A stretch of 64,000 nucleotides of DNA, from positions 3,410,001-3,474,000 of the forward strand of contig CM038999.1 in the NCBI GenBank assembly GCA_017499595.2, read 5' to 3'. This document shows positions 1 to 46,900 of this stretch, one piece after another. Made by a program: the position numbers and the translations under genes. Positions within the stretch are counted from its first letter, which is position 1. Each line of letters opens with the position of its first letter. Below the pieces are notes generated by a model. It ran no database searches, had not been told where the DNA came from, and saw only the letters and a program-made list of their open reading frames with translations. This DNA comes from Psilocybe cubensis. Taxonomy: Eukaryota.

Positions 1-431
1 TGTTCAAGTGGTTTAATCGCTCTAATGATCAAAATTGTCTTCACTGGTGCGGTGACCTGCAACGCAGCAACCCTCAGTTAAATGAAATCCTCAGTCTAAA
101 TGGTTAGACTCCTTGCAGTTCGTCCCTATAAATTGTATCACATCGCCTCCTACGTACTTGGATTTGTATCTAAAGTTGGCCTTGTGGTTGTTCGCTTGTT
201 GACACTTGCACACCAATTGAATCTTCTTTTTCAAAAGTAACGTTGTTTGGGCATGCCAGTGCGAAGAACAGGCTGCGCAATATCTTGAAGAAGCCGTTCT
301 CCGTTTTGTCATTATGATTTATGAAGAGACGTTTTGGATATAAAGGTGCACACTTTGATTTCTAGTTCAATATTCCTCGACCACACCTGATCGGTGTCCC
401 TTGTTTTTTGTTGGCATTTTTTGTGATTTTG

Positions 432-714
432 ATGGCCAATTTTCCTGTACCAGTGGGAGGCATAGTATACCCATCGGACTTTGTGCCTTCGCTTGTTTTC
501 ATTGCACTTTATGCCTTTTTGCTCCCTCTTATGTTATACCGAATGCTTAACAGGAGGTCTCGGACAATACTGCTGATAGCAGCGTCTTTCAGCTGCGTGG
601 AGCGGTAGGAGATGTCTTGACCTAACAGCTAGAAAATAACTGACACTCTGTAATGATCCAGAATGGCCGTATTCGTCATACGGGCAATACAGTCGCGCAA
701 TGAGGCGCAACGTT
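432..714 (+). pseudogene. 5' part of a multi-pass membrane protein gene (possibly RTA1-like) interrupted by the transposon
   Basis: ATG at 432, hydrophobic exon 1 (432-604), GT-AG intron 605-661, then exon 2 (MAVFVIRAIQSRNEAQR) cut at 714. The frame resumes at 16080 (FRVGLVRYTQVTLSMGY). Confidence 0.8.
708..714. other. Left target-site duplication CAACGTT (GCAACGTT if 8 bp)
   Basis: The same sequence follows the right TIR at 16073-16079 (16072-16079 if 8 bp). Removing the element and one copy restores the host reading frame. Confidence 0.9.
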
Positions 715-1018
715 CACATAAGACAGTTTATTTATAACGTACATTACCTAAGATTTAATAATAAGGATATTACGTGAGACACGGTGGATTTACTCCCGCT
801 ACCTAATTAGGAGATTAGCGTGATGTACGTGTGATTTATCCTGGCAAATCATAGCGTACATGACGTGCCATTTAGCACTAAATGGAGCCGCCGGGTGGCA
901 TGCGGGATCCGCGTGTCGGGCTGCACGGGAAAAACACGGGCCGCAAATGAACCGGACGGGTCCATCTACATCCCGTGTATTGCAAGCAGACGGATCCGTT
1001 TTGACCCGTGTTGTGCTG
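715..1018 (+). repeat. Left terminal inverted repeat (304 bp)
   Basis: CACATAAGACAG...TTGTGCTG is the reverse complement of 15769-16072. One mismatch was seen (895 vs 15892). Confidence 0.95.
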
Positions 1019-1159
1019 AGACGGGTCCATTCATCCACCCGCTTCTGTATTCCGACAAATATCCGCCTTGAAGAATCATACATCGGATGACCGTTAATAT
1101 ATGTAATAAGGTGTATAGATTATACTGGCAGCACATTCCTTTCCACATACCCTGATAGC

Positions 1160-2439
1160 ATGGATTATGCCTTTGAGCTAACCCAATCCCTCTCAAACTA
1201 CATGAAGGCACAAATAGCTAGTCGTCTTTGGCATGCAGAACTGCCTAATCAAATCCGGGAAAACTTCAGTGCTGAGACCATGTTTGAGTGCAATCTAGCT
1301 GTGGAGGTGATTTTGCAGGCATTTGAAAATCAAGGTATGCAATCAATAAGCTTTGAAAATTGAGATTAAATAATGTGTGAATGGCAGAATATACGACGTG
1401 GGATGCAGAAGAATATTTGACTCATCTCAGTGCACGTTGCACGGGTCAGAATTTTACCGTTGAGGCTCGCCTGAAAGACAAGTTTTCTCCAGTGCATTCC
1501 GCGTTACAGTACCAAACCCTGCCCGGAACTGTGGTCGATAGTGCAGGCAACATATTGGTGTAGTACCTGCCAGGTATTTTGTCAGAGACAAGGGTGGTGA
1601 GTTTTAGAAACAGACCAATTAATTCATATATTATGCTTTCTAAAGAGTAACAGGAGAGTGTGTGGAATTCATTACGGGATATTGAAACAATGATTCACAA
1701 GGCGGTACCTTTGGCCACAAGCTGGAGGGTCAATGACAGTTACTTTCAACATGAGCCAGGTTGGGTTCAACCTGGAAATATTAACTTCTCCCCGGCATGG
1801 TTTCAGCAAGGCCATGAGGTGAGAAACTTGTATGCTAATTATTATACTGCCTCATATTTTCCTCAGACGTCCAACCCGCTTGAGGTCTCCTTGGACTTGT
1901 GTAATCCAATTGGACAGGAGTTTATACGAGACACGACGACATCTTCGGCTTTGCTGGGAGCCATCTTGAGCATTATACATCCCGAGCAGTACCGGGCGGG
2001 AATGAAATTTCTTCAACGGCTTGCTGCGGAACCGGAGCTTGTCCATAAGGCTGAAATATTGAAGCAAATTCTCACAATTTGGAGTTCGCCCTTTGGAGTC
2101 ATGACCGTGATCAGCAACCGAGATACACCATACCATCGGGATAATGGGTCGTGCTACTCATGGTACGATTTTTTGATGCCACTTGGGAAGGGTAAACACG
2201 GACGGCTTGAGCTTCCGGGCCTTGGACTTCGGTACAAGTATGATCCCATGACCCTTGTTGCAATTACCGGCAGGTTGCTTCAACACGGCGCGGTGTGCGA
2301 TGGAGACAGGGCAGTCATAGTCTATTACATGCGTAGGACTGTATTTGAAGAGCTGGGAGTCCAAGAGGCGGGATGGTCTACTACGTACGATCTTTTTGCA
2401 AATTTACCGGCCACCAACGCTTTTGATTTTGAAATATGA
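1160..2439 (+). pseudogene. TET/JBP-family 2-oxoglutarate/Fe(II) dioxygenase with an in-frame stop
   Basis: Predicted exons 1160-1334, 1388-1596, 1654-1818 and 1867-2439. HxD motif TPYHRD (2134-2142), distal His in LLQHG, and Arg in DRAVIVYY. TAG at 1561-1563 in GNILV*YLPGIL. Linkage to a KDZ transposase matches known fungal TET/JBP genes. Confidence 0.85.
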
Positions 2440-2533
2440 TCAGTTTTTGACTTGGAAGTTGGGTTTGGGGAAGATTTTTTTATATTTCCAAACCAAAACA
2501 GTACGAAAGCTACAGCACAACCAGAATTCTCTG

Positions 2534-2802
2534 TCCCAGGGTGTTTCCGACGCGTCCGCGCTGAGCTCTTCCAAGGTTACCGGAATCATCGGACTCCGCC
2601 GTCGTATTACCGGCGGAAAAGGCATCATCCGCCTCCTCTTCGATGTCCTGTGCGAGAGGTGGGCAACTAAGATTCCTCATCCCAGGGTGTTTCCGACACG
2701 TCCTCGCTAAGCTCTTCCGAGTTACCGGAAGCATCTGACTCCTCCGTCGTATCACCGGCGGAAGACTCCTCATCCGCCTCCTCTTCAAAGTCCTGTGCGA
2801 GA
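2534..2802. repeat. Imperfect direct duplication (~123 bp x2) of the 3' end of the 4291-2667 gene
   Basis: 2534-2657 and 2680-2802 both read TCCCAGGGTGTTTCCGAC...GTCCTGTGCGAGA, with scattered substitutions and an indel. Confidence 0.85.
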
Positions 2803-4291
2803 TGCTCTAAAAACGTAGCTGGTGTAGAGGATTCAGTGGTATCGGACGTACTATCAATATCATCCTCTTCTCCCGGGAAAACAGGTCTTGACCTTGCGTT
2901 AAAAAGGAAGGCATTGCTGGTGTGTGCATTTGACGGAGGGCTGACGGAACCGGGCGTAGGCAGAGTATCTGTTGGGAGATGAATATTTGCAGTGTTGGAG
3001 GACGGCGAATGATACCAGAGTGGATGAAAAGGTAGTTCCTTGACGGCAATAAAAGAATAAAAAATGTCGTTGATGTAAAATGAAGCGACTTTGAGCTTTG
3101 AGACCTCGAAGGACCGGGCTTGAGCCGTTATAGCGCCCCAACTGTCAGGAGAAGGGTGAACGGGATGCTGAAATTTGTATTTGGCTGAAAGCCCCTTGCC
3201 GTTAGAGAACGGGAGCTCCTTAGAGTCAATCCACATCTTCTCCAATACAGAATATCTGCCCAAGGCAGCCGAAGAAGTAGTCACTGCTTTATGGGCATTC
3301 TTCATTTTGTCCGCCACATTCCGGCGCAGGTGAGCCAACTCCCTCATTACGCCCGTTAGGATAGGCTGACCGCAGCGGGGACAGTAGGGCGGTCTGTGGT
3401 CAGAAATTGCAATTGGGGATGTTTCATCCCGCGTGTTTGCAACACGGGTCGGCGGATTGGGTTTCCCCGTGGGCGGTGAAAACGCGGAGCCGTGCTTTCC
3501 CGTCAACGCGGATCCGTGCTTCCCCGAGGTGGGGACGGATGTCCGTTCAGCCGCCTTTCCCTTGCCCTTGGGATTGTTTTCTTGATTTCTTGGAGGCCCA
3601 GAGGTGGATGAACTTGCGCCCTCCTTAGCTTCTTTCCTCTGATTATTTAGCCGGAGTACCTCTTGTTGGTATTCAGGCAGAACCACCTGGTGGGAAGGAC
3701 GCAAATCAGATATAATCCACAGCAATAAAAAAACATACCTTGTTCCAAAATTCTCTTGCTTGCGATTCAACGGTAACAAAGGCAACTTGCCACTCATCGC
3801 CTTCAGCAAATCCGTCCCTCCACCAATATCCCCAGCTCTTGGTCTGATTTAAAATTTCATCATCTTCCCATGCTGACCAGCTTTGATTTAGAGATTCAAA
3901 TAGAACAGCTCGATGGTGGAGAGTTCGGTTCAAAACGGCATGTACGCTCTGATTGAGAATTTCTGATATAAAAAATGGAATATCGACTTGGAATCCATTG
4001 ACATAGCAGTATCCGAGTACTCTCAGCAGTATAGCCTATCGAGCAGTTCTCAATGCAAGATATAATAGTTCAAAATTACTGTCTTACCACCTCTAGGTCA
4101 AGCAAATACATCCATTTTTGGCGACGCACGGAGGAAACAGAGTCTCCGTTTGCAATGAACAAACGGTATCCGGCACGGATCCGTGCACCACAAATATGGA
4201 CATGAACTTTGGCCAGAGCACGTCGCTCATCATAGGTAAGGAGATGATGTTTGTCCTCGACAGGAGGTTTAAAAAGCCGCGGTAAGTGCAT
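2667..4291 (-). CDS. Transposon cargo protein of unknown function (Trp-rich helical N-terminus, CPRC motif, acidic tail)
   Basis: Three-exon model, approximately 4291-4088, 4035-3739 and 3686-2667, with GT-AG introns and no stop seen. The start codon is uncertain. Confidence 0.65.
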
Positions 4292-4335
4292 GAATTCAAC
4301 AAGATGAGATACAACAAGAATGTTCAAAGAACTGG

Positions 4336-7300
4336 TTAATCTGTAATTATAAATCTCCACACGGACGGATACTCCGGGTTAATTTGACGGAAGACCTTAT
4401 CCGCGGCCCGCCCCAGATCATTCCACATGGCAATCTGCTTTTGAGCATTTGCCCTGTGACCAACTAACCTGTCAGGAACAAAATCATGCCGTGCACGCCA
4501 TGTCTTTGCCATATACACATAAAATCTGACAGTCCATTCCATTTCCTTTTTTGTCAAAGCCAGCTCCTCTTGCCATCTATTTCTCTGAGCTCGCGCGCGG
4601 AGCCAGTTTAGCCTGAAGACTAAGAAACCTTTGAGAAAAAAATTAGAAATACAAATGGCAGTACTCACACTCATTAACGTATAATTGATTATCATTGTCC
4701 AGGCCCTGACGGGATCTCCAAATCCAACTTAGACGGTCCGAGCTTCCTCCGCAAATGTTCGGATCCGACACGGCATTACTATGCTTGCAATCATGGACTT
4801 GCAGAATGGGATATTGTTTCCGAATATTATCCTCGTCTCGCACGCCAGCAGATAAATAGATCATCTTCTGACGGTTTGTGTTGTAGAGTCGCCGGTGCAA
4901 TTTCCAGGAAGCATTCAAAAGCTTGACGCCATCCCAAGCACGAGTCCCCATATAGACGGAGTCGGCGGTCCGAACCTGATATTTATACTGCCAAGAAAGC
5001 TGGATCAAGGCTGACCGGACCGCTTCCAGACAGTCCTCTGCGTGGCCATGTCTTATTTGAAGTTCAAGTTTGCGAAGCCCTTTTAAAATGAGGTTTGTTC
5101 CCGCGTCAAGGCCGTCAAAGAAATCTTGTTTGACGGTGGAGGGAAACGGAAGCGGCTGTCGTTCCGGATCCGCGCGGGTAATGTTGACATTTCCAAGATC
5201 AGGATCGTCGTTGTCACTGACTTCATAGTCAAGTATGGGAGCGATGTCCCCTTGAATATCCTCCAAGACATCTTCGCCCATGAAGGTCATAGCGGATCGA
5301 CAGAAGGCTTCAACGCGGGTCCGCATGGAGCGACGTTTATTGACCAAGTCAAGTTTCTGCGCGGTGGAAGGATGCTTTCCGAGCTTTCTGACATGGTCCC
5401 TGAGCTCCAATCTAAAAACATGTTAAATTCTGTAGGATGCAATTGAAATAATCGTACTGCGCTTGCTCCAGTTTTAAGCCGGATGATATCCATGCTGCCT
5501 TTCCAGTAGCACCATTAGATGTAAGTTCCATATTTGAAAGATGCAATTCAATTTCTTGGCGTCCAGCAGCCGTTTTCACTTTGCTTGCCATTACCTTGCC
5601 AACAGCGTCGGCCACACCTTGTTCTCGGTCCGCTTCTGCTTTTGAAATTTCATCTTCCCAAGTGTTGATGAGCCCGGAATCTTGTTGATCCGTGATACCC
5701 CTATAAAATTGGTCTGTGATTCCAGACTGTTCCCGTGCCCGTTTGAACTTTGCAGCAATTGTTGCAGCCATATTAATGGTCTTCTTCCAGTTGGAATCCC
5801 CCATGTGGTCGTCCAAAACCTCTGCTCGATGGGCAGTGGTAGCGGAACGTGTACTCCGGGATGTGTCATTTAACACGGACCACAACGGCTCCAGGATTTC
5901 TCCGTCAATGATTCCCACACCCGGGACATAGGTGGATGCATAATTGTAAAGACATTCCGTCTTGTGCCCGTGGACGTGAAATAAACCAATTGCAAAAATC
6001 ATTTTAACAGAAGGTGGCCAATGCATTTTTGTGGACTCTGAGAGACGCCTTGCCAAGTTAACGCAATATTGACAGTTTATATCGTAGATTTCCAAATGTT
6101 TTGTGATTCCCTGTGTGTTGGTAGTTTCCCTGGCCTGAGTCAAAGACCAATCCATGTGCATCTGCTTTTCACCTTTGTCAAAATCAACAACGCTGGATGG
6201 ACAGAAGCATCCGTGCCTAGCGCAAGCGTGTGCCCCAATTCCACGTACTCTCTTACCCGGGCTGACTCTGTTTTCAGCTTTCTGGGCGTGGTAGTTATGA
6301 CATGTTTGTTCCTGATATTTTTTGACACGGAAAGTAAGCATCCGCCGTAGAAGATTTTGACACGGAGCGTAAGCATCCGCCGTGAAAGATAAATCATGGT
6401 AGATAACGCACCCGTTTATAACGTGGAGCAAGAGAAATTGCTTCCTTAATGTGCTCCTTGTAAGGGCCCGGAGCAGTCATGTATCCTTCTCCAACGCTCA
6501 ACCAAACATTGTCTCCCTCGTTTTTCTGATTGAGGTGATCTGCTTTGAAATTACCATCTGCAACATAACTACATATGTACAGATTGCTACTTGCTGTTAA
6601 TTGCAGTCACCCTTGAAGAATAACTAAAACTTGCCTATCAGCATCATCAATCCAGGTATCAGGTAGGTTTATTCCAGGCTGTGGACAGGCGGGGCAGAAT
6701 AAGGCCAACTTCCCTCTCCTATCTTCAACTTCGGGATGATCCTCGGTCCGCGTCATTTGTGGTACAGGCGGACCATCTAATCCGCCGTGTCCCAGAGACG
6801 GGTCCGTTGACATTCCGACTTCTTGAGACGGACTATCAGATCCGCCGTCAATTGGATTAGATACATTAATACCCATCCTCTCTGGTGATGAATCATGGCA
6901 ATGACGATAGTAAGGGACCACCACTTCTCTTGTATGCCCTTCTCCGTATTGTCGTCTCAGGACAAGGTCCCTGTATTCTCTACTAAGCCTTCTCAATTCA
7001 CGATAGCGGTTCAGCACCTTTTTTGGAAACGCTGGCGAAGTCAGTCTTCGCAACTTTTGGTAATACTGATAAGCCGACGTTTTGCACTCGAGGTTGTCCA
7101 TCCGAAAGTCCTCAAGGACCTCAACTGTGAACACAGTTTGAACGTTTTCAAAGCTGGCTGCAAATAATCCCATCTCCAGATACTGTAAATCGATAGACGG
7201 AAGGCGGACGGACCGGCATGTGCATGTTCGCACGGGCAGATAATGGACTCTGGAGGTGTGCACAATTGCCTTGAAAGGAATTCCATTGTTGTCTGCTGCC

Positions 7301-8219
7301 TTTGGACGAGGTTGGTCCAGATAGGTTGTATCGACTTCCTCGAATAGATCATCGTCTTCATCGTCTCCATCGTCCAGCTCAACCAAATGGGGTACCTCCG
7401 GGTCCGCCAGAAGCTGAGCCGTAAAGGATTCTTGGTCATTGCTCGCAGGAAGCGGATCCAGGTCCAATCCGTGTTCATCTTCAAAGACGGGCGAATTGTT
7501 TCCGCCGTGCCCATGACTCCCGGATGAATTGTTTCCGCCGTCCCATCCTAGGTGGCTCGGATCCGTGGGATAAGGACAACGTTTCCCATTATGACCCAAA
7601 TACAACTTGACACCCACTTCCCACAGAGCTCCCGGACGGAAATATAGACCCGTCCACTTCTCAACGCGGTGGAAAGGTGTAAATTGATGGTTTCTTCGCA
7701 GGCATTCAGAACACAAAATTCTAGAGCCAAAGCATTGGCAACATCTCCACACTCCAGACATTCCTTGACATTGCTGACACTGTCCATTCAGATCCGGATC
7801 CGGGGCTTCTCCTCCAATCATTGTTCCAAGATACACCTCTCGTTTCGGGAGCCATTCCCTCAGGTAATCATTTTGAGACTGGATAGGTAAAGTCATCCTG
7901 ATCATTCTACTGAAAACATGTTAAAACATACCTTTCCTCCCGTTCTGTCGTCATCTAGCTGTCTCAGGTTATCAAGTACCTGCTGATCAGTTAGATCTCC
8001 CGGATAATGAGGTATTTCTTCTTCCAGAATGTTGTGTTCATGGTTTTGGAAAGAGTAAGTCGTTGTTTGAGGGAGGTTTGTTGATGATGATTCTGCAGGA
8101 AGTTTGTGGATCCTCGGCCGCCCTCTCTTTCGTTTCTTGGCCCCACTAGACCAGGAGGCCTCCCGAACATTGGGAAACTCCTCATCCGATCCCCTATCAG
8201 GTACTTTCTTGAAGCCCAT
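4336..8219 (-). CDS. KDZ-family transposase with an N-terminal Cys cluster and CxC2 domain
   Basis: Six-exon model. Motifs: KRGRPR (AT-hook-like), CQQC/CCQC/CSEC..H, HRVEKWTG, CTC, CPACPQPGINLP, DGNFK, CARHGCF, GEKQ, YDINCQY, HVHGH and DGEILEPLW. One intron needs a GC donor (~6634). No stop or frameshift was seen. Confidence 0.9.
6320..6389. repeat. 35-bp tandem duplication within a transposase intron
   Basis: TTTTGACACGGAAAGTAAGCATCCGCCGTAGAAGA followed by TTTTGACACGGAGCGTAAGCATCCGCCGTGAAAGA, inside intron 6312-6411. Confidence 0.9.
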
Positions 8220-9099
8220 GGATGTTGGAAACAAAGAGTCTGACAGCCTGTGAGTGCAGATCTAAATGTAGTATAACATGTTCATTTCTGTAGATAAATT
8301 TCCCTCAATTATGCCGTTTTAAAGAGGAGAAAAATAGCTTTCATATGACTTATCTTGCAGCATATTTGGATGAGTGAGTGAAATGTTATGAACAAAACTT
8401 AATCCAGAGATGCACAAAATGGACGTGATCCCATCATAAATGTACAATATGATGCAGAACGACCCTTTCAGAACCACACTTTGGAGTGTTTTTGAAATAT
8501 CTTTTCACTGGCTGGCCCCTCATTCCTCCGGCATATATCATATGAAAGATATTTTTAATAGCTACCGAATGACATTTTTTGTAGAATGTGAATCCTTGTA
8601 TTTAAGGAGATATTCTCAATATACTAGAAAATGTGTCAAAATGAGCTCACTGGGATCATTATATTTTTTGAAAAAAAATTATGCATTTGAATACCTCTCA
8701 TGGTCTCTGAGATAACTGCCGTTTTGGGTTTCACAAGTTTTGGGTGAGAAGACGTGAATTTGCATTTTGTGTTTCTGTATCTTTACAGCCATCTGACAAG
8801 AATTTAAAACCTTGTAAAATTATCTTTATATAAAGCGCTAAATGTTTACAAAATTCCATGTTTATTGATTGAATGCAGAGGGAACTATTGCAAAATCATG
8901 AGGTCAATGTATGTGACAGCGACCAGCATGCTTTGATCATCGTGGCCGACGATGAAGCGGGATTACCTGATTGGGAAAAATATGACATCACATCATTTAT
9001 TTAGTATGATCGGAAGCTTATTTTATCTCCGTATGACGTGAGATTTGACCAGATCACACAGATACTCATCGATAAGCTACTTGTTACATCACTGCAATT

Positions 9100-11410
9100 A
9101 TGCCCACCAATGCATCCCCCGACGCGGATCCGCTTCCTTCTACCGCAAATGCCACAACCCACAACGGACCCAGAAACGGACAGACGGCGGAGGGTGACTT
9201 TCCGCCGGAAGAATCAAATATTTGGACAACAAAGGAAATGCGCGTGTTGAAAAAGCATGTACAGCCCTACAAAGATACATCAAAGTCATCCAAAGCAGAC
9301 TACATACAGAACACTGTCATACCTGAGCTGCAAGCTACATGGGATCACAGATACTCTAGACGTGCTAGGAAGGAAGATAAGCAACTACACAAAGAATGGA
9401 AGGTGAAGAAGCATGTGAGCTCGTTGTTTCTTTGAAAATTTTGTTACACACATAAACCATCACAATAGCGAATATTTAATTGGTTTAGAAACCATGCGTC
9501 AAATCGAATTGGTGTAAAATTGGAAGGATTGAACTCCCGTATAACCTTTCAGACGGTATTCCGTGAGGAGAAGTTGGCAGAGATTGACTCCGAGGTTGCG
9601 CTTCTATCAGGGAATGCTGCTCGTGGAAGTAAAGATTGGATGAAGTTTTATCAACAAGGACGTAAGCAGGTTGAGGCCAGATTGACTCAGGAGGAGCGGG
9701 ACAGGTTCATGGAGATCCTCGAGGAATGGAATAAGAAAGGTGTTTCAAAATCAATGAAGGCAAAGTGAGTCGGTGGAACTTGTTTCCGCCGTCAATCTGA
9801 CATCTGCAGGACTGCTGCCAGGCAAGGCAGAAAAATACTTTGACAAATGGAGAAACTTAAGTGGCAGAGAATGGGTATGAGGTCCATTACCTTTGAGGGG
9901 CATTATGATATTGAGGGTAAAATCGAATACTCAATGTAAGTGTTAAACACGGCATGAACAAGTTCCGCCGTGAATGCTTACGGCGGAAACTTTATCCGCC
10001 GTAAACACCCTACGGCGGATAAAGTTTCCGCCGTAAGCATTCGCGGCGGAATAATTTGGCCCGTATTAATGTTGACTGATGGGCATTGAAGGACCCAGAC
10101 AAGCGATCTAGCACTCGACGATGTCAGAATTCCTTCCTTTGGGCAACTCTTTCCATCCGAGTTGGCCGCTTTTCGCAGAGCGTTTGTTCAATACCTCGTC
10201 CACATTTCAGAAATAGAGAAGGGTGTGGCCAATCCAGCACTGCCAGATGCATCGTTTCATGAAAAATCCCTCAAGTTTAGCAGCAATGGATTTCCAATAG
10301 TACCTAGTCCTATCTATGGCTCAACTGGGAAAGAAGTCGCTTATGCACAAAAGTCAATTATTAGAATTTACATGAACAAGGTTTATGGTGTGTAATTTGT
10401 CTATGTCCTCAACAAACTTGCTAACTATGTATACAGCTTTAGCCAAGGACAGGCCTGGTTCAAGTGTTCCTTGGGATGCTCTTGAAAGGCGTTCTGCAGA
10501 AATGATTGATCCAGAGTATTGGCCAAGTTCAATCCCCGTGACGGATCCAAGCCGGCTCCGCCTGGAGTCAACCTCTGCAATTCTCAAGCTATGGAGGGAC
10601 CGTCAAGCCCAAGGAGACATCCCCTTTAAATTTTCAAAGGTTTTTGGAAATGGCTATGATATTATGGAACCTCTCTATCCGTCCAACTTGTTTGACGGCC
10701 TAGAAGCCCACCCGATACCTCCACCTCCTGCAGCAATAACCAAACGTTGCCTGAGGCAAAAAGCTATACGACTTCAAACCCAATCTTCAAGCAACTCTGA
10801 ATCATCCAATCTGTCAGAGTTTGATAATGGACGGGGCAGTCCGGCATCCGCGATGCCACGCACTACTGCCAGATTTGAAGTCACACCAGAGACGGATGAG
10901 ACTCCTACCGACGCACCTTCAAGATCTAGCGAGCCACCCTCTCTACCAAGTAGATCCAGCCCAACAATTGTCAATCCATCATCCAGCCCAACTCCAGAGG
11001 TTGAGGAGGCGCCTCCCAAGCCAGCTAGAAAGATTATGCCAAGAAAAAGAACAAAGCCATATGTCGGAACGGCGGAAATGGACGGACCCGATGAAGAGAG
11101 TTCTGTACCGGCCCCAGTTAAGCCAAAACCAACTAGAAGGATTCAACCTAGGAAAAAAACAAAGCCCTACTCAGATCCACTTGACACAGTGGAAGAAAGT
11201 GGAGTTCAGACAGGAACAACCCAAGACACGGATAATACACGGGCCGGCAGGGACGTGACTTGTGATGCCTTTGTGGAGACAGTAACAAGTCCAGATACGG
11301 ATGAAACACGGGCCCGCAGGAATGTGACTTCGGATGCCTTAGCACTTCAGGAAGCAAGTCTGCTTGTTGTAGCAGGTAAAAGACAAAGAAAAAAAACTTT
11401 GAAAGCCTAG
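9100..11410 (+). pseudogene. Transposon cargo gene, probable nuclear helical/DNA-binding protein, with an in-frame stop
   Basis: Predicted exons 9100-9414, 9469-9764, 9810-9935, 10092-10387 and 10437-11410. Contains RIFNWFRNH and a basic C-terminus (KRQRKK). TGA at 9841-9843 in RKIL*QMEK. Confidence 0.7.
9963..10051. repeat. Nested inverted repeat: 41-bp arms with a 7-nt loop, inside an intron
   Basis: 9963-10003 and 10011-10051 are reverse complements with one mismatch. They lie in intron 9936-10091. Confidence 0.95.
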
Positions 11411-11674
11411 CTGCTGAAGTAGATTCATAATACCTATTGAATGTGATGCTTTTCATTCTTATCTTGATGTTTCTCAAACATGTTTTCACACAAAATCAAA
11501 ACAGAAAGCGGGTTCATTAAAAATCATCAAGTGCTACTTTTTGGGAGAGATATAAAACAGATGAGCACATGAGAGTAAAAACTATATACAGTCCAAATAT
11601 TAAAAATTGTACAATGCAATCTATGAGACAAGGCAAAAAAGGAGACCAAAAAAAGTTACAAGATTTGAAATACA

Positions 11675-14193
11675 CTACTTTTTTTGGGCCTTGGGTTTTT
11701 TGGGTGAGCGCGATGCTTCAGCCAGAGTCGTTTCCGCCTTTCGCTTCCGTCCAGCCCTTGTCTTTGTGGCTATGTTCGACGCGGGCAGCGTGGACGCCAC
11801 AATCTCAACATCCTCCTCCACAATTTCAACCTCGTCGCTGTCCGAGGGATCAGACAACTCCGATGAGTGTCCATTCCCGGATGGCCCAGCCTTGGAGGAT
11901 GGCTTAGCCTTTGACAATGGCTTAGCCTTTGAGGATGGGCCGGCCTTTGACGATGACGATGGCGCGGCCTTTGACGATGGTGCACCCTTTGACAACGGTG
12001 CGGCCTTTGACGTCGAACTTCGAGGACGTGGAGCTGGGAGAGGGGGTGGTGGAGACAGGGAAAGGACGGGTGGTACCGGTGGGAGCGAGGGTCGGCCAGC
12101 TGGGGGGGGCGAAGGCGCTTCTGGAGTCGAACCGGGCAAGAATAGCGCTGTTGGTGGCGCAGACACGGCAGGGAAGACGGGTGCGGGTGGAGGTGGGGGT
12201 GGGGAAGGGAGGACAGGTGCTGGCGGTGGTGGAGGAGGGGAAGGGAGAATGGGTGCTGCTGGAGGTGGAGGTAGGGAAGGGAGGGGTGCTGGCGGTGGTG
12301 GTGGGCTGGGGGATTGTGGCGCAGAGGTGGGTTCACGGGTCCGCGACGGACCCGATTCTTGTTCGACCTCCGTCTTGGAGGGTTCTGCTGCCTGTTTGGG
12401 GGCGGGATTCCTTTGTTCATCCTGCTCCAGCAAAACCCCGACCACGTACTGAACGTCCTGGATCGCCTGCTTGATGTTGTTGAACATCGTGACGGAAAGC
12501 GAAGTGTTTCCTGCCACTTGTTCTATTGCCGTGGTCCACTCGGCCTTCAGCTCTTGGAAGCTGTCCTCGACGGTCTTCATCCTCTTCTCCACCGCCAAGT
12601 TTGTCTCGGCGAACGTTGCAATCCGTGCGTTTATCGCCGTCATGGACGCGGAAAGGCCATCCATCCGTTCCATCAGTCGGCCTTGTCGCTCAAACAGCTG
12701 CACAAGCAGCTCTCCCACATCCTCGGGGAACGACCCTTCCCCGGCCTTCCCCTTCGCCGGAACATCCTCTCCCTCCTCCAACTTCAACACCTCCCCGTAA
12801 CTTCCCAGCGGCGTCGAGAGGTTGAATTGCCCGGCGACAGTGTTGCGTCCCGGGTAGAAACGTCCCGGGTAGAAACTGCAGTGAATCTTGCGAGACTTGC
12901 AAGACTCGCAAGATTGGTGCTTTACGGGGACGAGAGGCTCAGTGCCTGTCTCTCCCTTGACATGGCACGGCACCTTGAATTTGGTGCATCCTGTGCACCT
13001 TTCCACCATATCCACCATCCCCTCCGGCACCTGGCGCGCTTTCTCGGATCTCGACCGCGCCTTCCTGATGGGGGAGATATTGTCCTGGTTGGCGTCCTTC
13101 TTTGCAGACCGGGTGAGCATCTTCCGGGTGGGGGTGGTAGGCGGGGCCTCTTGGTCATCGCCTTCGTCGTCCTCGTCGACGTCGGCGTCCGCGTCTTCGT
13201 CCGTGTGGCTTCCTATGATTGCTTTGCTCCTGAACTTCCCCTGCTTGGACTTCGCCAATCTTTCCAGCTTCTCCCTGTACGCTGGGTGACCAGGCATGTT
13301 GGAGGCGGTGATGTGGGGAATGATTTCCCCCTTCTTTGTCCGTGGGCCCCTGTAGTCCGCTGGAGCTAACTGAATGGTGGGCGTCTGTCACGGGTCCGTC
13401 TTCTACCGGGGGTTCGACTGCCTTGCCCTTGCCCTTCTCGGCCCGTCTCTTCTCCGTCTCCTCCTTGTTCCTCTCCTCGTCTGTCTCCTGCTCCTGCTCC
13501 TGCTCCCTCTTCCTCCTCTCCTCCGCCTTCTGCCTCTCCTGCTCCCTGGTCTTCCTCTCCTGCTCCCTCTTCCTCCTCTCCTCCTTCCTCCTCTCCTCCA
13601 CCTTCTGCTTCTCTTCCTCCCTCTTCCTCCTCTCCTCCTCCCTCTGCCTCTCCTCCTCCTCCTCCCTCTGCCTCTCCTCTTCCTCCTCCCTCTTCTTCTT
13701 CTCCTCCCTCTTCCTCCTCTCCTCCACCCTCTGCCTCTCCTCCTCCTCTTGCTCCTCCTTCTCCCTCCTCTTCTCTTGCTCTTCCTCCTCCCTCCTCTTC
13801 CTCTGTGCCTCCTGGCCTTGCTGGTATGCCTTGAAATTTGCGACTTGATGATGCAAATTTGCCCAGTCGACCTCGAACCTTCCTACCTGCTTGCCGTCCT
13901 TGCCCTGGCTGGTCTTGTATGAATACACGACAGGGCTTGCGACATAATCCACGAGGCGGAAGTTGGCCGCGTCCCTGACGTGTTCTTGACACAGTGGAAC
14001 CTATTTGGATGAATTTTTTTTGTTCAGTAAGTCTTATGCTCAAGGGATATCGATTACTCACCAAGTCCCTGTAGAGCTGCTCCAACTGAGCGTTGAACGC
14101 GCTTTCGCCATTGCGGTAGCACTCTGTAAAGGTTTTTTCCCAGTCAGCAAGGCGTTGGGCGAAGGTGGCGGTGGTGGAAGATGAAGAGGCCAT
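11675..14193 (-). CDS. Transposon cargo protein with an E/R/K-rich helix, Zn2Cys6-type cluster, coiled coil, Pro-rich region and NLS-like tail
   Basis: C-x2-C-x6-C-x18-C-x2-C-x6-C at 12997-12878. Intron ~14061-14001. The junction at ~13406-13370 needs a short 37-nt intron or else is a frameshift. Ends PKKPKAQKK. Confidence 0.75.
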
Positions 14194-14676
14194 TGGGAAA
14201 GCGTTTTTTTTGGGGGGGAAGACGCGTTAATGGGTGAGGCACGGTAGAACGTGGGGTGGTGATCGTGGTTGGAGTTAGTCTAAAAAAAGTCTAAAAAAAA
14301 GCGGTCCCGCAAAACAAAACCATACACAAACATGTACAATCTGAGTCATGTGATTTCTTCACCAGATCCAGTTTGTGCAAAAGTTGCTAAGTTCGATACA
14401 CGGGTGAATCTATTTCCGTGTCATGGAGAATCCTCGGATAGTATTGTATTCCGTGAGATATATAAACAAGCCCACCCAGTTGCACTTTCTGGACTGTATG
14501 TCCTCCTACAACTTTATTCCCACCTCTAGCAAAAATTCCCCCATTGACTACACCAGTCTCAACAATCTTACCAGGCTTCTCAAAAAACTGAAGGAACCTC
14601 CTCCCGTAAAACCTATAAAATGTAAGACTAATTGCATTAATTCAAGTAAATTTAAATTGATTTCTGAGCATCAGCA

Positions 14677-15675
14677 ATGTCTTCAAATATTAGCAACTCT
14701 AAGGAAAGCAAACGCACAGCAAGGACGGATGACCTGGCTCCGCCGCCAATGCCAGTCATTCCAGATAACCTGGCTCCACCCCCTATGCCTGTTATTCCAG
14801 CTAACCTGGCTCCTCCCCCTATGCCAGTCATTTCATCTAACCTGGCTCCGCCCCCTATGCCAGTCATCCGGAAAGACCTGGCTCCGCCGCCAATGCCAGT
14901 AATTCCAGCTAACCTGGCTCCACCCCCTATGCCTGTTATTCCAGCTAACCTGGCTCCGCCCCCTATGCCAGTCATCCGGAAAGACCTGGCTCCGCCGCCA
15001 ATGCCAGTAATTCCAGCTAGCCTGGCTCCACCCCCTATGCCAGTCATTCCACCTACCCTGGATCCTCCCCCTATGCCTGTTATTCCAGATACCCTGGATC
15101 CTCCACCTATGCCTGTCATCCGGGATGATGCGGCTCCGCCGTTGATGGCAGCACATGTTTCATACACGTCTGTCGTCGACAAAATCATTATGGACTCTCG
15201 TCCAGCTATTTCCTCTGAGAGGAAGCAAGGTCGCTATTCTCCACCCCCTGAAGCATGCCACCTGCTCCTTCAAAACCCTTATTTTTGAACCTACGGCAGG
15301 TTTGATCCCATGGGCGGCTACCCCGGTTCGCCTCCCACCCAGTCTGACATTGAGTTCGAGAATGTAACAGATCAGACGGCGTATTTTAACCCTCCTTTTC
15401 TATATGTATATACTCAGATATTACCAAGCACTAGATACTGACAACTATTTTAGAATTATACCGAGCAGCAGCTACGGGCAACATACGACCAAATAATTGA
15501 CAGTTCCGTCGGCGACAGTAGTTATGACGGAAAGGTTACAACGTTCAAGAACCTCCGGCTGCATCAGCTGCAGTCAGAGATTCTGACTTATAATGCGCTG
15601 GAGGAAATTGACGCTGGGCTGGCAGGGATTGAATCGAGTTTGGAAAAGCATTTGTATACCGGTAGAGATGAATAA
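14677..15675 (+). pseudogene. Transposon cargo gene for a proline-repeat protein, with an in-frame stop
   Basis: TGA at 15286-15288 (NPYF*TYGRFDP). The frame stays open beyond it, through an intron ~15406-15452, to TAA at 15673-15675. Confidence 0.65.
14731..15126 (+). repeat. Coding minisatellite, 11 x 36 bp (xLAPPPMPVIxx)
   Basis: Eleven 12-aa units counted in ORF 14677..15288. Confidence 0.95.
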
Positions 15676-15768
15676 ATTATTTTTGGAGCCCTTGTGCTCA
15701 TTGACTTGCAATACACCATAAATAACCCTCCCTCTCTGGAAAGACACGGGTCAAATGGGTCTGTCTGA

Positions 15769-16072
15769 CAGCACAACACGGGTCAAAACGGATCCGTCTG
15801 CTTGCAATACACGGGATGTAGATGGACCCGTCCGGTTCATTTGCGGCCCGTGTTTTTCCCGTGCAGCCCGACACGCGGATCCCGCATGCCATCCGGCGGC
15901 TCCATTTAGTGCTAAATGGCACGTCATGTACGCTATGATTTGCCAGGATAAATCACACGTACATCACGCTAATCTCCTAATTAGGTAGCGGGAGTAAATC
16001 CACCGTGTCTCACGTAATATCCTTATTATTAAATCTTAGGTAATGTACGTTATAAATAAACTGTCTTATGTG
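15769..16072 (-). repeat. Right terminal inverted repeat (304 bp)
   Basis: Reverse complement of 715-1018. Ends CTGTCTTATGTG and is followed by CAACGTT. Confidence 0.95.
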
Positions 16073-16079
16073 CAACGTT

Positions 16080-17056
16080 TCCGTGTTGGCCTTGTGAGAT
16101 ACACACAGGTCACATTATCCATGGGATACCTCGGCCTTCTGCATGACGTGATCGCCATCCTTCGATGTGTGCTGGTGAACCCGACATATGGCTCGATCAT
16201 GTACTACCAATCGCCTGCCGCGCAAAACAAGGAAGGCTTCTACGGCGCACCAGCCGCCGATGTACCCGACAGAAAACGATTACGATCTCAGTGTCGGAAG
16301 ATGATGGGCGCTTTGCAAATGCAGTTATTTATAGGCGGAATTGTGTTAGCAGCATACGGCAACTCACTGTATAGTCAAGACTTCGATGATCAGCACAAAG
16401 CAGATGTCACAGCAGTCCTTAGGCAGGTCTTCTAGTACCACACTCAAGTCACGATCTGAATGAATGTTTTGCTAATTGCAATTCATTTAATTGCAGAACC
16501 GTCAGCTCAGCGATTGCGCTGGCAGTGTCCGTGTCTGTTCTCTTGATCACTTGATGGAGTGTATCCACGTTCCGTACCAACACCAAAAGTTCTGCTGGAA
16601 TCATAGCTGCTATAGCCTGTTTGCTAGTAAGCATGTTGAAATTTACGCAAGAAATTATACGGTGCTCACCAGTTATCATAGTTGGTGGTTGCTGTTTATT
16701 GTCTGAGCGTAATGGGACACAAGACTACATCTCTTGAAGCACACATGGCGGTAAACGAAGGCAAAGAAAAGGCGACATTTTACATCTTTCACATTCTTCC
16801 AGAGTGGCTCTGCACACTCATATTTTTTACGGTTGATATTAGAAAAAAATTCGGTACTGGACCTATGGGTGATACGCGGCTGACAGACATGACGCCAGAA
16901 CAGCATAAAAAATGGGTTACCAAGCAGACCAAAAAGGAACAGAGGCGCAGGGCAAAGTTAGGGCAGTTTGTAAGCGATGGTATGGAGTCGGAGATACCAC
17001 TGCAGCAAAATTTTGGAGGTACTGGAGATGGACATTCATACCAGGTGCTACAGTGA
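16080..17056 (+). pseudogene. 3' part of the interrupted membrane-protein gene
   Basis: Predicted exons 16080-16422, 16497-16626 and 16682-17056, with hydrophobic segments and KATFYIFHILPEWL. Under a GC-AG intron model there is a TGA at 16552-16554. Confidence 0.75.
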
Positions 17057-17326
17057 TGCAAGATAGCGACTATCGATGATTGATGTGGCTCCAACTTAAT
17101 TATGCCCAGCTAGTTTCAGAGTTGCATAATTGCCATCTACTGAATAGACCCCTGATGACAATGCGAGGAACATCAGCCGAGGTGCTCGATCAAGTCTCTG
17201 ACTCACTGCGTACTCAAACGTGCATGACTTTTCATCTCATTAAAATTTATAGACGCTGGTGCACGGTATTATTCCAACCATGATGGATTGACGCTCAATA
17301 TTCGTCATAAACCACAATTTACATAC

Positions 17327-18298
17327 CTACACCTTTGTCACCTCCTCCGTATGTTCCCAAAGTTTCTGCCGCAGCTCATCATTGCCATAATATCCCGTCT
17401 TCCCAATATCCTCGCCTTTTTTACCTATCCTTGAGGTACCATTGAGAAGGCCAGACCATAGGTATTCTGCACATTGATTTTGGGTCACAGTGAACGGTTT
17501 TGCGATGAGGTTGGCCACAGGTGCAACAGCTCGTAGCCATGGCATATGTGCTGAGCTCATGATATTGGTGAGCACAGCACCAGGGAATGAATGGGAGAAA
17601 ATGATCCCAGGATTTTGCTGTTGGAAGGACTGAAAAAAGAGGCAGGTTAATTTGGGCATTTTTTAACAGGCACTGTAGGGGTTCACCTCCACCATCAAAT
17701 CGTTGTACGTTGTTGCCGCTTCGGTAGCAGTGCGGAAAGAATAACCTTTCTTCAACCCAAGATTATTAGATTCAATCTTGCCGCCGCGACCAGCAGCCAA
17801 CACGGACATAACCCTTGCATCTTCTCCCTCCTCATTTGCCTTCTTCAAAGCATAAAGTAACTCGTCAATAAATTTCCATCGAGCATAGTAATGCACTGCG
17901 AGCGTCTTGTCAATTCCCTCCAATGTCTCATCCCGTCCTGAAGTAGAGAAAAAGCCAGGACTCAGAATGAGAAAATTGATCTTGGGGTATTTCTCCAAAA
18001 TTGTCTGAGACGCTATGTGAACATTCTTCATGAGAGTCACATCGCAGTGGACAAATTTGTGGCTCCATGTCTCAGAGCCGGTGGCTTTGGGGAAATGAGA
18101 TATGATATCCTTTGCTGCGGCTTCATTGCGTCCAACAATAACGATATGAGCCTTGCCATCTCTCCACCGTGCAAATGTTTCGGCCATTCCCTGCCCAATT
18201 CCAGAGGTTCCACCAATGAACACTGCGACTGGAGTCCCAAAGAGTTTTTCCACGATGGCTGCATTGTTGTTATCCAAGGCGGCAAGTACAGGAGCCAT
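17327..18298 (-). CDS. Short-chain dehydrogenase/reductase-like NAD(P)-binding protein (copy 1)
   Basis: AVFIGGTSGIG Rossmann motif, ETLEGIDKTLAVHYYARW. Exons 18298-17687 and 17629-17327. Confidence 0.9.
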
Positions 18299-43959: not shown

Positions 43960-46900
43960 GCGTCGACGGAAGACTAAAAGAAAAAAAAGAAAAGAAAAAA
44001 GACGGAACCAGACTAGACGAGACAGATTTAAAAAGAGACTATATCTACTTTGAAAAAAAAAAGAAACTGAAAGAGAGATAATCAAGGGAGGAAAAAAAGA
44101 CCTAAATCATCACCCACTGTTTGACATTTTGCTTCATATTCAAAAGTCCAGGATAGAAAAAAAAGTAAAAGGAAAGACGAAAAAAAAAGGAATATAAAGG
44201 ACTTATGAAGACGGTCGGTAAAGTATAGAGAGAGACAGTGGGGGGGGGGTAGGGAGAAGATCGAGAAGCGACTCCTGCATCTGCAGCATATAATATAAAG
44301 AATTTTTTACACCAAGTAAACCAAAAGAGACCGAAACACAAATTGAAAGGGGGAAAAAAATATAAGAGACAAAGCGACAAGGTTTCGAAAAGAATCGACA
44401 GAGTGAGAGAGAGAGAGATACAAAAAAAAAAGGAAACTGTATATGGGCGATGAGAGATACCGATTCTTCTTTCGACATTTTTGTTTTGTAAAAAAAAAAT
44501 GTTGGTTGTCATCCTAGTAGGAGGACAGTCTAGCTGGCGGGAGGGGAGGAGGGGCTGGGGATTGGTTGCATGGGTAACTGGAGATATGGGGTAAAATGCT
44601 TGGGTAGAGGGATATAATGCGATGTGGTATAGCCTCTCAGGCCGCTGCCATACATATGACAGCAGCAGCCGTCAGGAGGTACAGATAGCGGATATCATGA
44701 TCAGACGTGCAAATGCAGCATCGTCCGAAAGAGGAAGAGAGAGGAATCGGAGTAGGAGAGTAGGAGGCCAGTATGCCAGATAGTCGGAGGTAGTAGTAGT
44801 AACAGTCGGATAAAATCGACCCAAGAGTCGTTTTGTTCGGCGAGGAGTAGAGGTAGAGATAGAGAGCGAGGGATATACGCATATCACGCATGCAGCTGAA
44901 GAAAAAAAGAATCGTCCGTCTAACCCAAAAAGGAATGTTCTCTTTTTTTTTAAAAAAAAAAATCGAAAACCCGAAGCAATGAGAGGATAAAAAAAATAGT
45001 GATGTACAATGTTTACTTTGTCGTTCTTGTTCAACTTTTTTTTTTGAGTTTGGTTGAACTTTTCTCGTTCAACCAATTCATCATGTAGCTGTTGGTGTCG
45101 GAAGCGGCACAGGCGTCCATCCCTTCCACACCACCCCTCCATCCGGAATAGGCAAAAATGGCGTCCTATTCCAATCAGCAGCTACAAAAACCCACACATC
45201 ATCATCAACAACCAGTAACAAACAAAATAAAAATCGAAAACACGCACTCTCTGTATACACCGTATTGCCCCACCAATTCAACACAATCTTGCCCCCCTTG
45301 GGGAACTGCAGCGTGAAGAAAATAAGCATCACACTAATCACAGTGCCGCTATCCAGCGCCGAGCTCAGCACATAGTTAAACTTGCTCCACCACGCAAAGT
45401 TCTTCTTGCGGATCAAATACTGGAACACGAACCCGACCGCGAACCAAGACGAGTAGTTGATGCCCGTCGCAGGAGGGATGTATGATACCCCGTTCAGCAC
45501 GACGGGCGTGCTCACGTAGCGCACCCACGATTTTGGATAGCGCCGCTGCCAGAAGAAGAATGGGAGTGGGAGGAACGCGCCGACGATGATCGCGTACAAG
45601 TGCGGGTGATAAATGGACCCTGTCCCGAATTGGCGCGTAGGTCCAATAAGACCCCTATAAAAACAACACCCCCCAATCAACATCAACACCACAGAAAAAT
45701 AACCCGTTGCGGAACGTACCAAACTGCAGACGCGGTGTAGAACACCTGGTTATGCGGGCATGTCAACTGCGACGGCTGGTCCTTCTGGCAAATATCCGGC
45801 ACATTCGAGAACATCCACTCCTTCACGCCAACCTGCACAAACGCCGCTAGCGTCGTCGCCACCATTTGCACTAAAAGTTCATAAAACAAACATCAGTTAT
45901 CCGAACAACCGACGAAAGAAAAAACACGCTAAAACACCAACAACACCACGCAGAAAATACAAGATAAAAAAAAGAGAGAGAGACCAACACGCACCCATGA
46001 ACGTCGCACGCGGCGGCACCTTGACATAATGTCCCAACTTGAGATCCTGCACGAACGACGTGCCCGCCGAGAGCGTCTGGACCGCATACGACTTGAACAC
46101 CATATTCGCAAGCGGTTTACCAGGTAACAACGTCCCCGGAATAATTTGCGCTAGCAAATTAAGTGTGATCTAAAAAAAAAACAAAACAAACAAACCAACA
46201 AACAAAAACCGTTAGCTGAAACCGCAAAAACAAGCATGAAAAGAGAAAGAAAGAGAAGTACTAACACCCTGGCCCGTCATCGCATAAATGAACCCACTAG
46301 GCAATATATATATCACCGGAAGCAAAATACTCAACAACAGCGCCCAGACCGGCACATCCGTCGACCACACCTCAACCGTGACAACCCCCAACGAGAAAAA
46401 CACACCAACCGCAATCAAAAACCACCAATCAGGTACTTCCGGGTAATTCCTCATGAGCTTCGCATGGATATCATCCTTTTCGACTCTGATCTTCTTGAAC
46501 CCGTTGAGCAGCGTGCGGCCGTGGTACAGCGCCGTGTGCACGATGACGCAGGTGGATAGGGCGAATGCGAGTAGGTATGTGATGGTGTATGTTGCGGGCA
46601 GGTAGAGCGGGGAGTAGTCGTTGTATGCGGCTTCGTCAAAGGTGTCGTTGGACCGCAGGACGCGGGTGACGTTGTATGTGTTCCCGAAGCGGTCGTATGG
46701 CTCGTTGGCGGAGATGGGGAAGTAGGCCAGGTTCCATGACTAGGTTATCTATCAGCACCGAAAGCGTATGTGGAAAAGACACGCAAAAGACGCACGTTGG
46801 TGTAATACAGCACTGGCGTGAGGATCCAGTAGAACAACACGAATCCAACAAAGATATGCACCTCTGCCCACCAAGGAACTGTAAAACAGAATCGGCGTCA

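Follow-up and report, generated by a model that had tools for sequence, protein, structure and literature searches.

A CGG-CGG octamer private to one element is scattered through a TET-carrying Kyakuja transposon of Psilocybe cubensis

The DNA analysed here (the window) is a stretch of 64,000 bases from Psilocybe cubensis (contig CM038999.1, positions 3,410,001 to 3,474,000 of the forward strand). It holds a DNA transposon of 15,358 bp that carries a TET/JBP dioxygenase gene and is placed by its sequence in the Kyakuja group of the KDZ superfamily. An octamer with two CpGs (TCCGCCGT, or ACGGCGGA on the opposite strand) occurs 16 times in this element and nowhere else in the window. The features of the locus are given below in window positions.

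708..714: target site duplication (TSD) of 7 bp, CAACGTT, found again at 16073-16079; from the sequence letters and the length of the empty-site joint
715..16072: the whole element, a Kyakuja (KDZ) DNA transposon of 15,358 bp that carries TET and has the termini CA..TG; from the terminal inverted repeats (TIRs), Pfam, the empty-site joint and read depth
715..1018, plus strand: left TIR, 304 nt, 100% complementary to 15769-16072; no octamer; CACGGG/ACGGGTC repeats and one CGGATCCG at 991
991 and 15789: copies of CGGATCCG, one per TIR; exact search
1160..2439, plus strand: predicted gene for a TET/JBP dioxygenase, limits approximate, free of octamers; Tet_JBP match in Pfam at 1651-2439 (E 2e-18)
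2534..2802: 145-bp tandem duplication at the 3' end of the KDZ gene; tandem-repeat search
2667..8219, minus strand: KDZ transposase gene (CxC2 and KDZ), with coding octamers 6781, 6841, 7501 and 7534 and an intron (6312-6411) with octamers 6341 and 6376; Pfam and homologue P0010 (99% identity)
3509, 4176, 4760, 5165, 7558, 7795 and 9125 (3509..9132): seven internal copies of CGGATCCG; exact search
5133..5140, plus strand: decayed family octamer, ACGGTGGA in the window and ACGGCGGA in nearly all other copies; reads at 5137
6320..6390: 35-bp tandem repeat in the KDZ intron, octamer in each of the two window units; Tandem Repeats Finder
9100..11410, plus strand: gene C, 668-aa protein, with coding octamers 9184 and 11069 and introns 9765-9809 (octamer 9785) and 9936-10091 (octamers 9964-10034); homologue P0008 (98% identity)
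9963..10051: nested palindrome in a gene C intron, 41-nt arms and 7-nt loop, with five octamers and GCGGCGGA; inverted-repeat search
11675..14193, minus strand: gene D, 838-aa protein with C-x2-C-x6-C-x18-C-x2-C-x6-C and then a long helix, no exact octamer; homologue P0001
14677..15675, plus strand: gene E, with a 36-bp coding repeat (APPPMPVI) whose last, variant unit is octamer 15135; tandem-repeat search
15769..16072, minus strand: right TIR, 304 nt; complementarity with the left TIR

The element ends read CACATAAG on the left and CTTATGTG on the right. Pfam placed a Tet_JBP domain at 1651-2439 (plus strand), CxC2 at 6607-7920 (minus strand) and a KDZ transposase domain at 5412-6476 (minus strand); the KDZ domain is PF18758 (E 1.2e-37), and PF18803 matched at E 2.1e-20. 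The element thus has the KDZ transposase domain with a CxC cysteine cluster, the 7-bp TSD and the 5'-CA..TG-3' termini, and the Tet_JBP gene lies inside the TIR-bounded segment 715-16072. We place it provisionally in Kyakuja, given the length of the TSD, the termini and the fact that its closest homologues are agaricomycete KDZ proteins. The element had no match in Rfam. Because its TIRs are 100% identical, the element is very young. It interrupts a host-gene open reading frame (366-608 and 640-714, resuming at 16073), and the interrupted gene has no Pfam family.

The element is present in multiple copies. Its proteins match annotated proteins of Psilocybe cubensis at 98-99% identity, namely P0010 (KDZ, 1691 aa), P0008 (gene C, 668 aa) and P0001 (gene D, 838 aa), which belong to 90%-identity clusters of 39, 22 and 10 members, and in several annotated copies the locus tags run consecutively D-C-KDZ. 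When public sequences (raw reads of X14; contigs of X1, X10 and X11) were mapped to window positions 1-17400, the raw-read depth rose from about 23-35 in the flanks to about 500-640 across most of the element (about 15-20 times), with lower depth across the repetitive stretch at 11.6-14 kb; the word depth in the X1 contigs was 16.9 in the flanks and about 200-230 in the element (about 12 times). From these depth ratios we estimate roughly 12-19 copies per genome. One contig and 12 raw reads carried an empty-site joint (706 to 16072) that skips 15,365 bases, that is, the 15,358 bases of the element and 7 more, so the insertion is polymorphic and its TSD is 7 bp. The loose read ends at 714/715 and 16072 agreed poorly with each other (0.37-0.41), as expected from many insertion sites.

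An exact search on both strands of the whole window returned all 16 octamers that the initial annotation had counted by eye, at the same positions (2595, 6341, 6376, 6781, 6841, 7501, 7534, 9184, 9785, 9964, 9980, 9995, 10012, 10027, 11069 and 15135), and none in the other 48.6 kb, where that annotation had also noticed none. No other 8-mer in the element reaches the count of ACGGCGGA, 16 against 0 in the rest of the window. Dinucleotide shuffles of the window (n = 100) contained 1.37 octamers on average and 5 at most, and Markov models of order 0, 1, 2 and 3 expect 0.41, 0.28, 0.64 and 1.43 copies in the 15,358 bp. The initial annotation was also right that some copies are local duplicates: when octamers less than 40 nt apart were chained into one site, the 35-bp tandem pair 6341/6376, the pair 7501/7534 (a 16-nt unit in common, at a distance of 33 bp) and the five octamers of the 9963-10051 palindrome were each joined, and 10 separated sites were left. 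For comparison, the top double-CpG 8-mer had no more than 4 separated sites in Markov-1 simulations of the element (n = 100), and 4, 5 and 7 in three 15-kb background chunks, the 7 being a simple repeat, CGCCGCCG. Because the enrichment survives the corrections for composition and for duplication that the initial annotation had named as able to undo it, we consider it real. One-mismatch variants number 20 inside the element and 35 in the three-fold larger background; since the exact copies nearly equal all the one-mismatch variants inside, the word is sharply defined. The seven single sites (2595, 6781, 6841, 9184, 9785, 11069 and 15135) have flanks that match those of no other copy at more than 14 of 30 letters.

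Exon and intron limits were set by the annotated homologues P0010 (KDZ) and P0008 (gene C). By these limits, eight octamers are intronic, one lies past a stop codon and seven are coding (four in KDZ, two in gene C, one in gene E). The initial annotation had placed copies in introns, in the coding sequence of four genes and in intergenic DNA; the intronic copies stand, the coding copies fall in three genes, and octamer 2595 lies past the KDZ stop codon in the duplicated 3' segment. The TET gene, gene D, the TIRs and the two divergent promoter regions hold none of the 16. As for the TIR variant ACGGTGGA, which had been offered as a related form, it has 3 copies inside the element and 5 outside and is thus neither element-specific nor enriched.

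The octamer is seen in both orientations relative to transcription, and its coding copies are in two different frames: the four KDZ copies (6781, 6841, 7501 and 7534) all read xAC-GGC-GGA, that is (D/H)-G-G, and both gene C copies (9184 and 11069) read ACG-GCG-GAx, that is T-A-E. In the reading frames of the element, the motif codons are used exactly by 2 of 2 TAE tripeptides, when codon usage predicts 0.08, and by 4 of 7 GG dipeptides, when it predicts 0.65. The two orientations, the intronic copies, the copy past the stop codon, the two coding frames and the exact choice of motif codons together show that the octamer is a word at the DNA level and not a peptide effect. The KDZ coding octamers sit in linkers that cannot be aligned with paralogues of 39-61% identity, and those of gene C in segments not conserved in P0009. 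P0009, P0011 and P0002 are proteins of a sister family. Octamers 2595 and 9184 have an inverted partner at a distance of 7-9 nt (in both cases the one-mismatch form CCGGCGGA), and such pairs occur throughout 9963-10051.

Several carriers of the octamer are repeats that differ among copies of the element. In the 145-bp duplication, the downstream unit, past the stop codon, has octamer 2595 with CCGGCGGA 7 nt away, and in the coding unit its place is taken by TCCTCCGT. The KDZ intron of many other copies holds a third 35-bp unit with an extra octamer; the joint of this unit (6331 to 6318, with a 25-nt octamer-bearing insert) had a depth of 110.9 in X1, one contig each in X10 and X11, and 143 X14 reads. 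The palindrome (DNA fold -55.5 kcal/mol, z -13.1) occurs in at least three structural forms among the copies, the long one of the window and two that are 63 bp shorter (joints 9962 to 10026 and 9980 to 10044), with loops reverse-complementary to each other in a flip/flop-like manner. The 36-bp coding repeat units of gene E carry TCCGCCGC or TCCGCCCC, and octamer 15135 may be a chance variant of this repeat. Since the carrying repeats are unstable and the octamer at 5133 has decayed in the window, the number of octamers varies among copies, by our count from about 13 to 18 per element. The window copy has other lesions as well: a premature TGA at 9841-9843 in gene C (CGA to TGA; Arg in the annotated protein), and in gene D the loss of 40 nt at 13377, which shifts the frame. 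Most other copies have these 40 nt (156 X14 reads), and the segment carries the one-mismatch form TCCGCCGC.

The octamer is not the only word of this kind. The palindrome CGGATCCG has 9 matches in the window, all in the element, with 0.81 expected; none lies in a tandem repeat, and most of the coding copies read xCG-GAT-CCG (x-Asp-Pro). The shorter CGGATCC has 22 matches inside the element and 2 outside.

To compare related elements, we scanned metagenome contigs with the KDZ exon and obtained 42 loci (139.5 kb, 40-72% identity), on contigs that are short and incomplete. Eight of the 42 (L002, L005, L008, L011, L018, L020, L029 and L033) have the convergent KDZ and Tet_JBP arrangement of the element. 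Because the octamer has only 2 copies in the 139.5 kb, it is not a conserved Kyakuja signal. Several loci have private words of their own:

L033: CGCGGAAA, part of the palindrome TTCCGCGGAA; 12 separated sites, simulated maximum 4
L011: CCCGTCGG; 6 separated sites, simulated maximum 4
L011: CCGCGGTC; 5 separated sites, simulated maximum 4
L020, L018, L005 and L009: CCGCGGGC or CCCGTCGG; 4 separated sites each, simulated maximum 3

The private words of L002 and L007 are marginal. Since the contigs are short and incomplete, the idea that TET-carrying Kyakuja families may have family-specific dispersed double-CpG words is a lead, not a result. The word-carrying stretches are 1960-7865 in L033 (TTCCGCGGAA) and 2-5854 in L011 (CCCGTCGG and CCGCGGTC). 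Separately, CpG-rich tandem units of 21 bp and 35 bp were seen in the related contigs L006 (7-121) and L023 (452-739), and L014 holds a GGCACCGA array with 33 matches in 2.5 kb. L032 was tried as a syntenic relative for genes C and D and was dropped, as its best BLASTP matches (E 0.12 and 0.003 for C, 0.46 for D) gave no usable similarity.

Zn2Cys6 proteins recognise two CGG triplets that may stand as direct, inverted or everted repeats, and the usual pattern of these proteins is CX2CX6C-X(5-12)-CX2CX(6-8)C, with a spacer of 5-12 residues between the half-clusters. The gene D protein has a comparable six-cysteine pattern. Only five relatives turned up when 1.84 billion representatives were searched exhaustively with HMMER, and two of these are distant: P0006 has one half-cluster, and P0007 (Flammula alnicola, 30% identical) has the full six-cysteine pattern. 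Against Pfam Zn_clus (PF00172, cut-off 21 bits), P0007 scored 21.7 (E 2.2e-4), the window piece 19 (E 0.0015) and full-length P0001 11.5 (E 0.35). A phmmer search of the PDB sequences with gene D gave LAC9 at E 0.21. In an AlphaFold2 model from a 7-row alignment, the predicted local distance difference test score (pLDDT) ranged from 60 to 78 in the cluster and was about 90 in the helix (residues 125-227), and among the Foldseek matches listed from the PDB 19 of 23 were Zn2Cys6 DNA-binding domains (LAC9, Gal4, Pho7, Leu3, Hap1, Put3, AlcR and Ppr1). From sequence and model, gene D is a weakly Zn2Cys6-like candidate for a reader of CGG triplets, which is suggestive and not established. The N-terminal zinc regions of the KDZ protein and gene C remain alternative candidates. 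The gene C protein has no Pfam family, and an atlas search with it gave only unnamed Basidiomycota clusters; its homeodomain-like 'WFxN' resemblance was an impression only and was dropped.

We tentatively propose, at somewhat less than an even chance, that the octamers are docking sites for a protein encoded by the element. In this proposal the octamer would be a DNA word specific to one family, that of a young TET-carrying Kyakuja transposon with multiple copies, and the dispersed copies would serve as a docking array for a sequence-specific protein of the element itself. The word can be parsed as two adjacent CGG triplets (A-CGG-CGG-A), often in inverted pairs 7-9 bp apart, and the second word CGGATCCG as inverted CGG triplets (CGG-AT-CCG). 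Such a grammar of CGG pairs would match the dimeric fungal Zn2Cys6 proteins, with gene D, through its six-cysteine pattern and long helix, as a possible reader. The sites appear to lie where the sequence would be free to change, in introns, in the duplicated 3' segment and in hypervariable protein linkers, and slippage and hairpin rearrangement of the short carrying repeats would inflate their number and keep it variable. The outcome of binding may be the guiding of TET or the marking of 'self' DNA, the architecture of the transpososome, or transcriptional control. We favour the docking proposal because the word is sharp, a second word exists, inverted pairing is frequent, the placement is tolerant and relatives appear to have family words of their own. 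Protein binding to the octamer, and the choice of gene D as the binder, are what we infer; the enrichment, the identity of the element, the positions of the sites and the variation in repeat-unit number are observed.

Selection for the octamer was examined through the decay of CpGs. The initial annotation held that keeping a two-CpG motif in an element with C-to-T damage suggests selection as a binding site. Among the 31 in-element differences from the reads that are listed (the table holds 646 more), 26 have T/A in the window and C/G in nearly all reads, and 17 of these 26, within 715-8597, are in CpG context; these private changes fit deamination of methylated CpG rather than the dinucleotide-specific pattern of repeat-induced point mutation. 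The damage is therefore present but light: at least 17 CpGs have decayed in 715-8597 and 370 remain, a loss of at least about 4%, and at that level the keeping of most of the 34 motif CpGs is what chance would give. The element has roughly 670 CpGs besides those of the octamers. Within 715-8597, 1 of 16 motif CpGs was lost, the same rate as elsewhere. With this CpG the window copy has lost the family octamer at 5133-5140 (ACGGCGGA to ACGGTGGA): at 5137 the window has T, and 557 of 570 raw reads have C (290/296 and 267/274). None of the 31 listed differences falls inside a window octamer, and none of the 18 residue columns coded by the six non-repeat coding octamers varies among 15 annotated copies each of KDZ and gene C. 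Since only 4-5% of all columns in those copies vary, this invariance is expected by chance. The argument from retention thus falls, and a binding site is still the best available reading of the octamer.

Several observations weigh against the docking proposal. The within-family tests of motif CpG loss and of residue variability gave no signal of constraint, the copies being too alike. The TIRs and the promoters, the expected places for transposase or activator sites, hold no octamer. Local duplication by itself produced six of the 16 octamers, and the octamer-bearing repeats differ in unit number from one copy to the next, so part of the count is explained by mutation alone. The 11-mer ACGGCGGAAAC (5 copies) is common to three separate loci, which could reflect copying rather than convergence. 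The bias toward CGG context is general in the element, and an order-3 model already expects 1.4 octamers. As to the candidate reader, the window gene D protein and P0001 fall below the Zn_clus cut-off, each match extends over about 15 of the profile's 39 positions, the half-cluster spacer is 18 residues in gene D and 16 in P0007, the model has a mean pLDDT of 66, and Foldseek gave no match at E <= 0.001 (best E 0.61 among the matches listed). In the relatives, the private word was not significant by the simulation test in L029, L008, L032 and L017, and several L033 sites lie in a repeat of about 205 bp between the KDZ and TET genes.

It is possible, though rather unlikely, that no protein is involved and that a hairpin-forming CGG-rich seed was multiplied neutrally by slippage, palindrome expansion and short-patch copying. 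The 35-bp pair, the 33-bp pair and the palindrome account for 9 of the 16 octamers, the 145-bp duplication carries octamer 2595, and unit number varies among copies (the third 35-bp unit and the two palindromes shorter by 63 bp). The ACGGCGGAAAC 11-mer at three loci would also be accounted for in this way, and the extreme youth of the element, with its 100% identical TIRs, leaves little time for selection, in keeping with the lack of measurable constraint. Against such instability, however, 10 separated sites are left after collapse when the simulated maximum is 4, and the seven single sites, with their dissimilar flanks (at most 14 of 30 letters in common), are in two reading frames as well as in non-coding DNA. 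In addition, the unrelated word CGGATCCG, with 9 sites outside tandem repeats, shows the same pattern, and other Kyakuja families have different private words.

Another explanation, which we consider improbable, is a footprint of methylation or of TET itself, in which CpGs in CGG, CGGA and CCGG contexts escape decay or are repaired and the words accumulate passively. CpG-to-TpG decay is visible in the window copy, and 59% of the CpGs of the element are in CGG (CCG/CGG) context, compared with 40% in the background at 16073-64000 (the median share in the related loci is 0.54, without a matched host background). Relative to the rest of the window, CGGA and CCGG are up 2.1-fold and ACGG 1.65-fold, and TCGA, ACGA and GCGC are at 0.48-0.55. 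Yet an order-3 model, which absorbs these contexts, expects 1.4 octamers and not 16. Decay removes words and cannot lift one 8-mer over its neighbours, to the point where exact octamers nearly equal all their one-mismatch variants; and the 17 listed CpG losses are in many contexts, CCGG and CGGCGG included. Finally, a role at the RNA level or for a host factor, with the 41-nt-arm hairpin (-55.5 kcal/mol, z -13) as a small-RNA precursor with an octamer seed or the octamers as host transcription-factor sites, is very improbable: all 16 octamers are in transcribed regions, but about 84% of the element is transcribed (sum of approximate gene limits), which makes this unremarkable, the octamers point both with and against the transcripts, the element is without a match in Rfam, and the promoter regions hold no octamer.

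Repeated binding sites are known from plant DNA transposons, with the AAACGG hexamers of Ac/Ds and the 12-bp TnpA motifs of En/Spm, and TnpA promotes the demethylation of Spm. Like these sites, the octamer is a short, element-private, CpG-containing word with many copies in both orientations, and in Spm an element-encoded binder is linked to the loss of methylation from the element. Unlike the Ac and Spm sites, which lie in the subterminal 200-300 bp, the octamers are spread over 12.5 kb of gene bodies: none of the 16 is in 715-1018 or 15769-16072, where the TIRs carry CACGGG and ACGGGTC. Among Zn2Cys6 proteins, Gal4 reads CGG-N11-CCG, Leu3 CCG-N4-CGG, Pdr1/Pdr3 TCCGCGGA and AlcR WGCGG. Both ACGGCGGA and CGGATCCG are pairs of CGG/CCG triplets, the octamer a direct CGG-CGG pair and CGGATCCG an inverted one, and TTCCGCGGAA of L033 contains the everted TCCGCGGA; the inverted octamer pairs 7-9 bp apart and the long helix of the candidate reader, which could dimerise, add to the likeness. 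On the other hand, the domain assignment of gene D is below the usual thresholds, and we know of no transposon-encoded Zn2Cys6 protein, nor of one with sites scattered through gene bodies.

The nearest known relatives are the TET-carrying Kyakuja elements of Agaricomycotina, described as multicopy, with 7-bp TSDs, CA..TG termini and a KDZ protein with CxC2 (Kojima 2025, PMC12730594). Our element resembles them in the KDZ protein with CxC2, the convergent TET/JBP gene, the 7-bp TSD, the CA..TG termini and the multiple copies, and differs from two Laccaria families, which are described as without TIRs, in its perfect 304-nt TIRs. The element itself is of a known type. The searched text of that survey makes no mention of dispersed CGG words private to an element, nor of a subterminal or internal repeated word or a binding site. 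The matches listed from a search of the paper library for the octamer letters were only apparently unrelated sequence strings, and a literature search on transposon methylation in Psilocybe cubensis found nothing relevant. In the same survey text, TETs are speculated to act without target specificity, and each TET is expected to serve its own family (PMC12730594). In Laccaria, the genes marked by 5-hydroxymethylcytosine or 5-formylcytosine that lack Gene Ontology terms but have a domain are mostly transposases and oxygenases of the 2-oxoglutarate- and iron-dependent (2OGFeDO) superfamily (PMC8889193). Family-specific targeting by TET would fit both this passage and the own-family remark of the survey.

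Elsewhere in the window, the minus strand holds a gene for an OPT oligopeptide transporter (45081-47753), and a 920-aa open frame without a Pfam family (50088-52850) has a GC content of 0.59 and strong strand skews.

TET/JBP genes on fungal DNA transposons are thought to counter silencing by methylation. If the words described here are only products of repeat instability, they would be a caution that a k-mer can be strongly enriched in a young multicopy element without having a function. If they are docking sites, the element-private CpG word, the second word of the same grammar and the putative reader of CGG triplets would be handles on how a TET favours its own family. An unlikely but attractive extension is a family 'address code', in which a Zn-cluster-like protein would read the CGG-type words and bring TET to, or confine it to, the copies of its own family. 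Such a code, if true, would give the family its own escape from CpG methylation and mutational decay, and would explain how a TET gene benefits its own transposon, which was left open in the 2025 survey.

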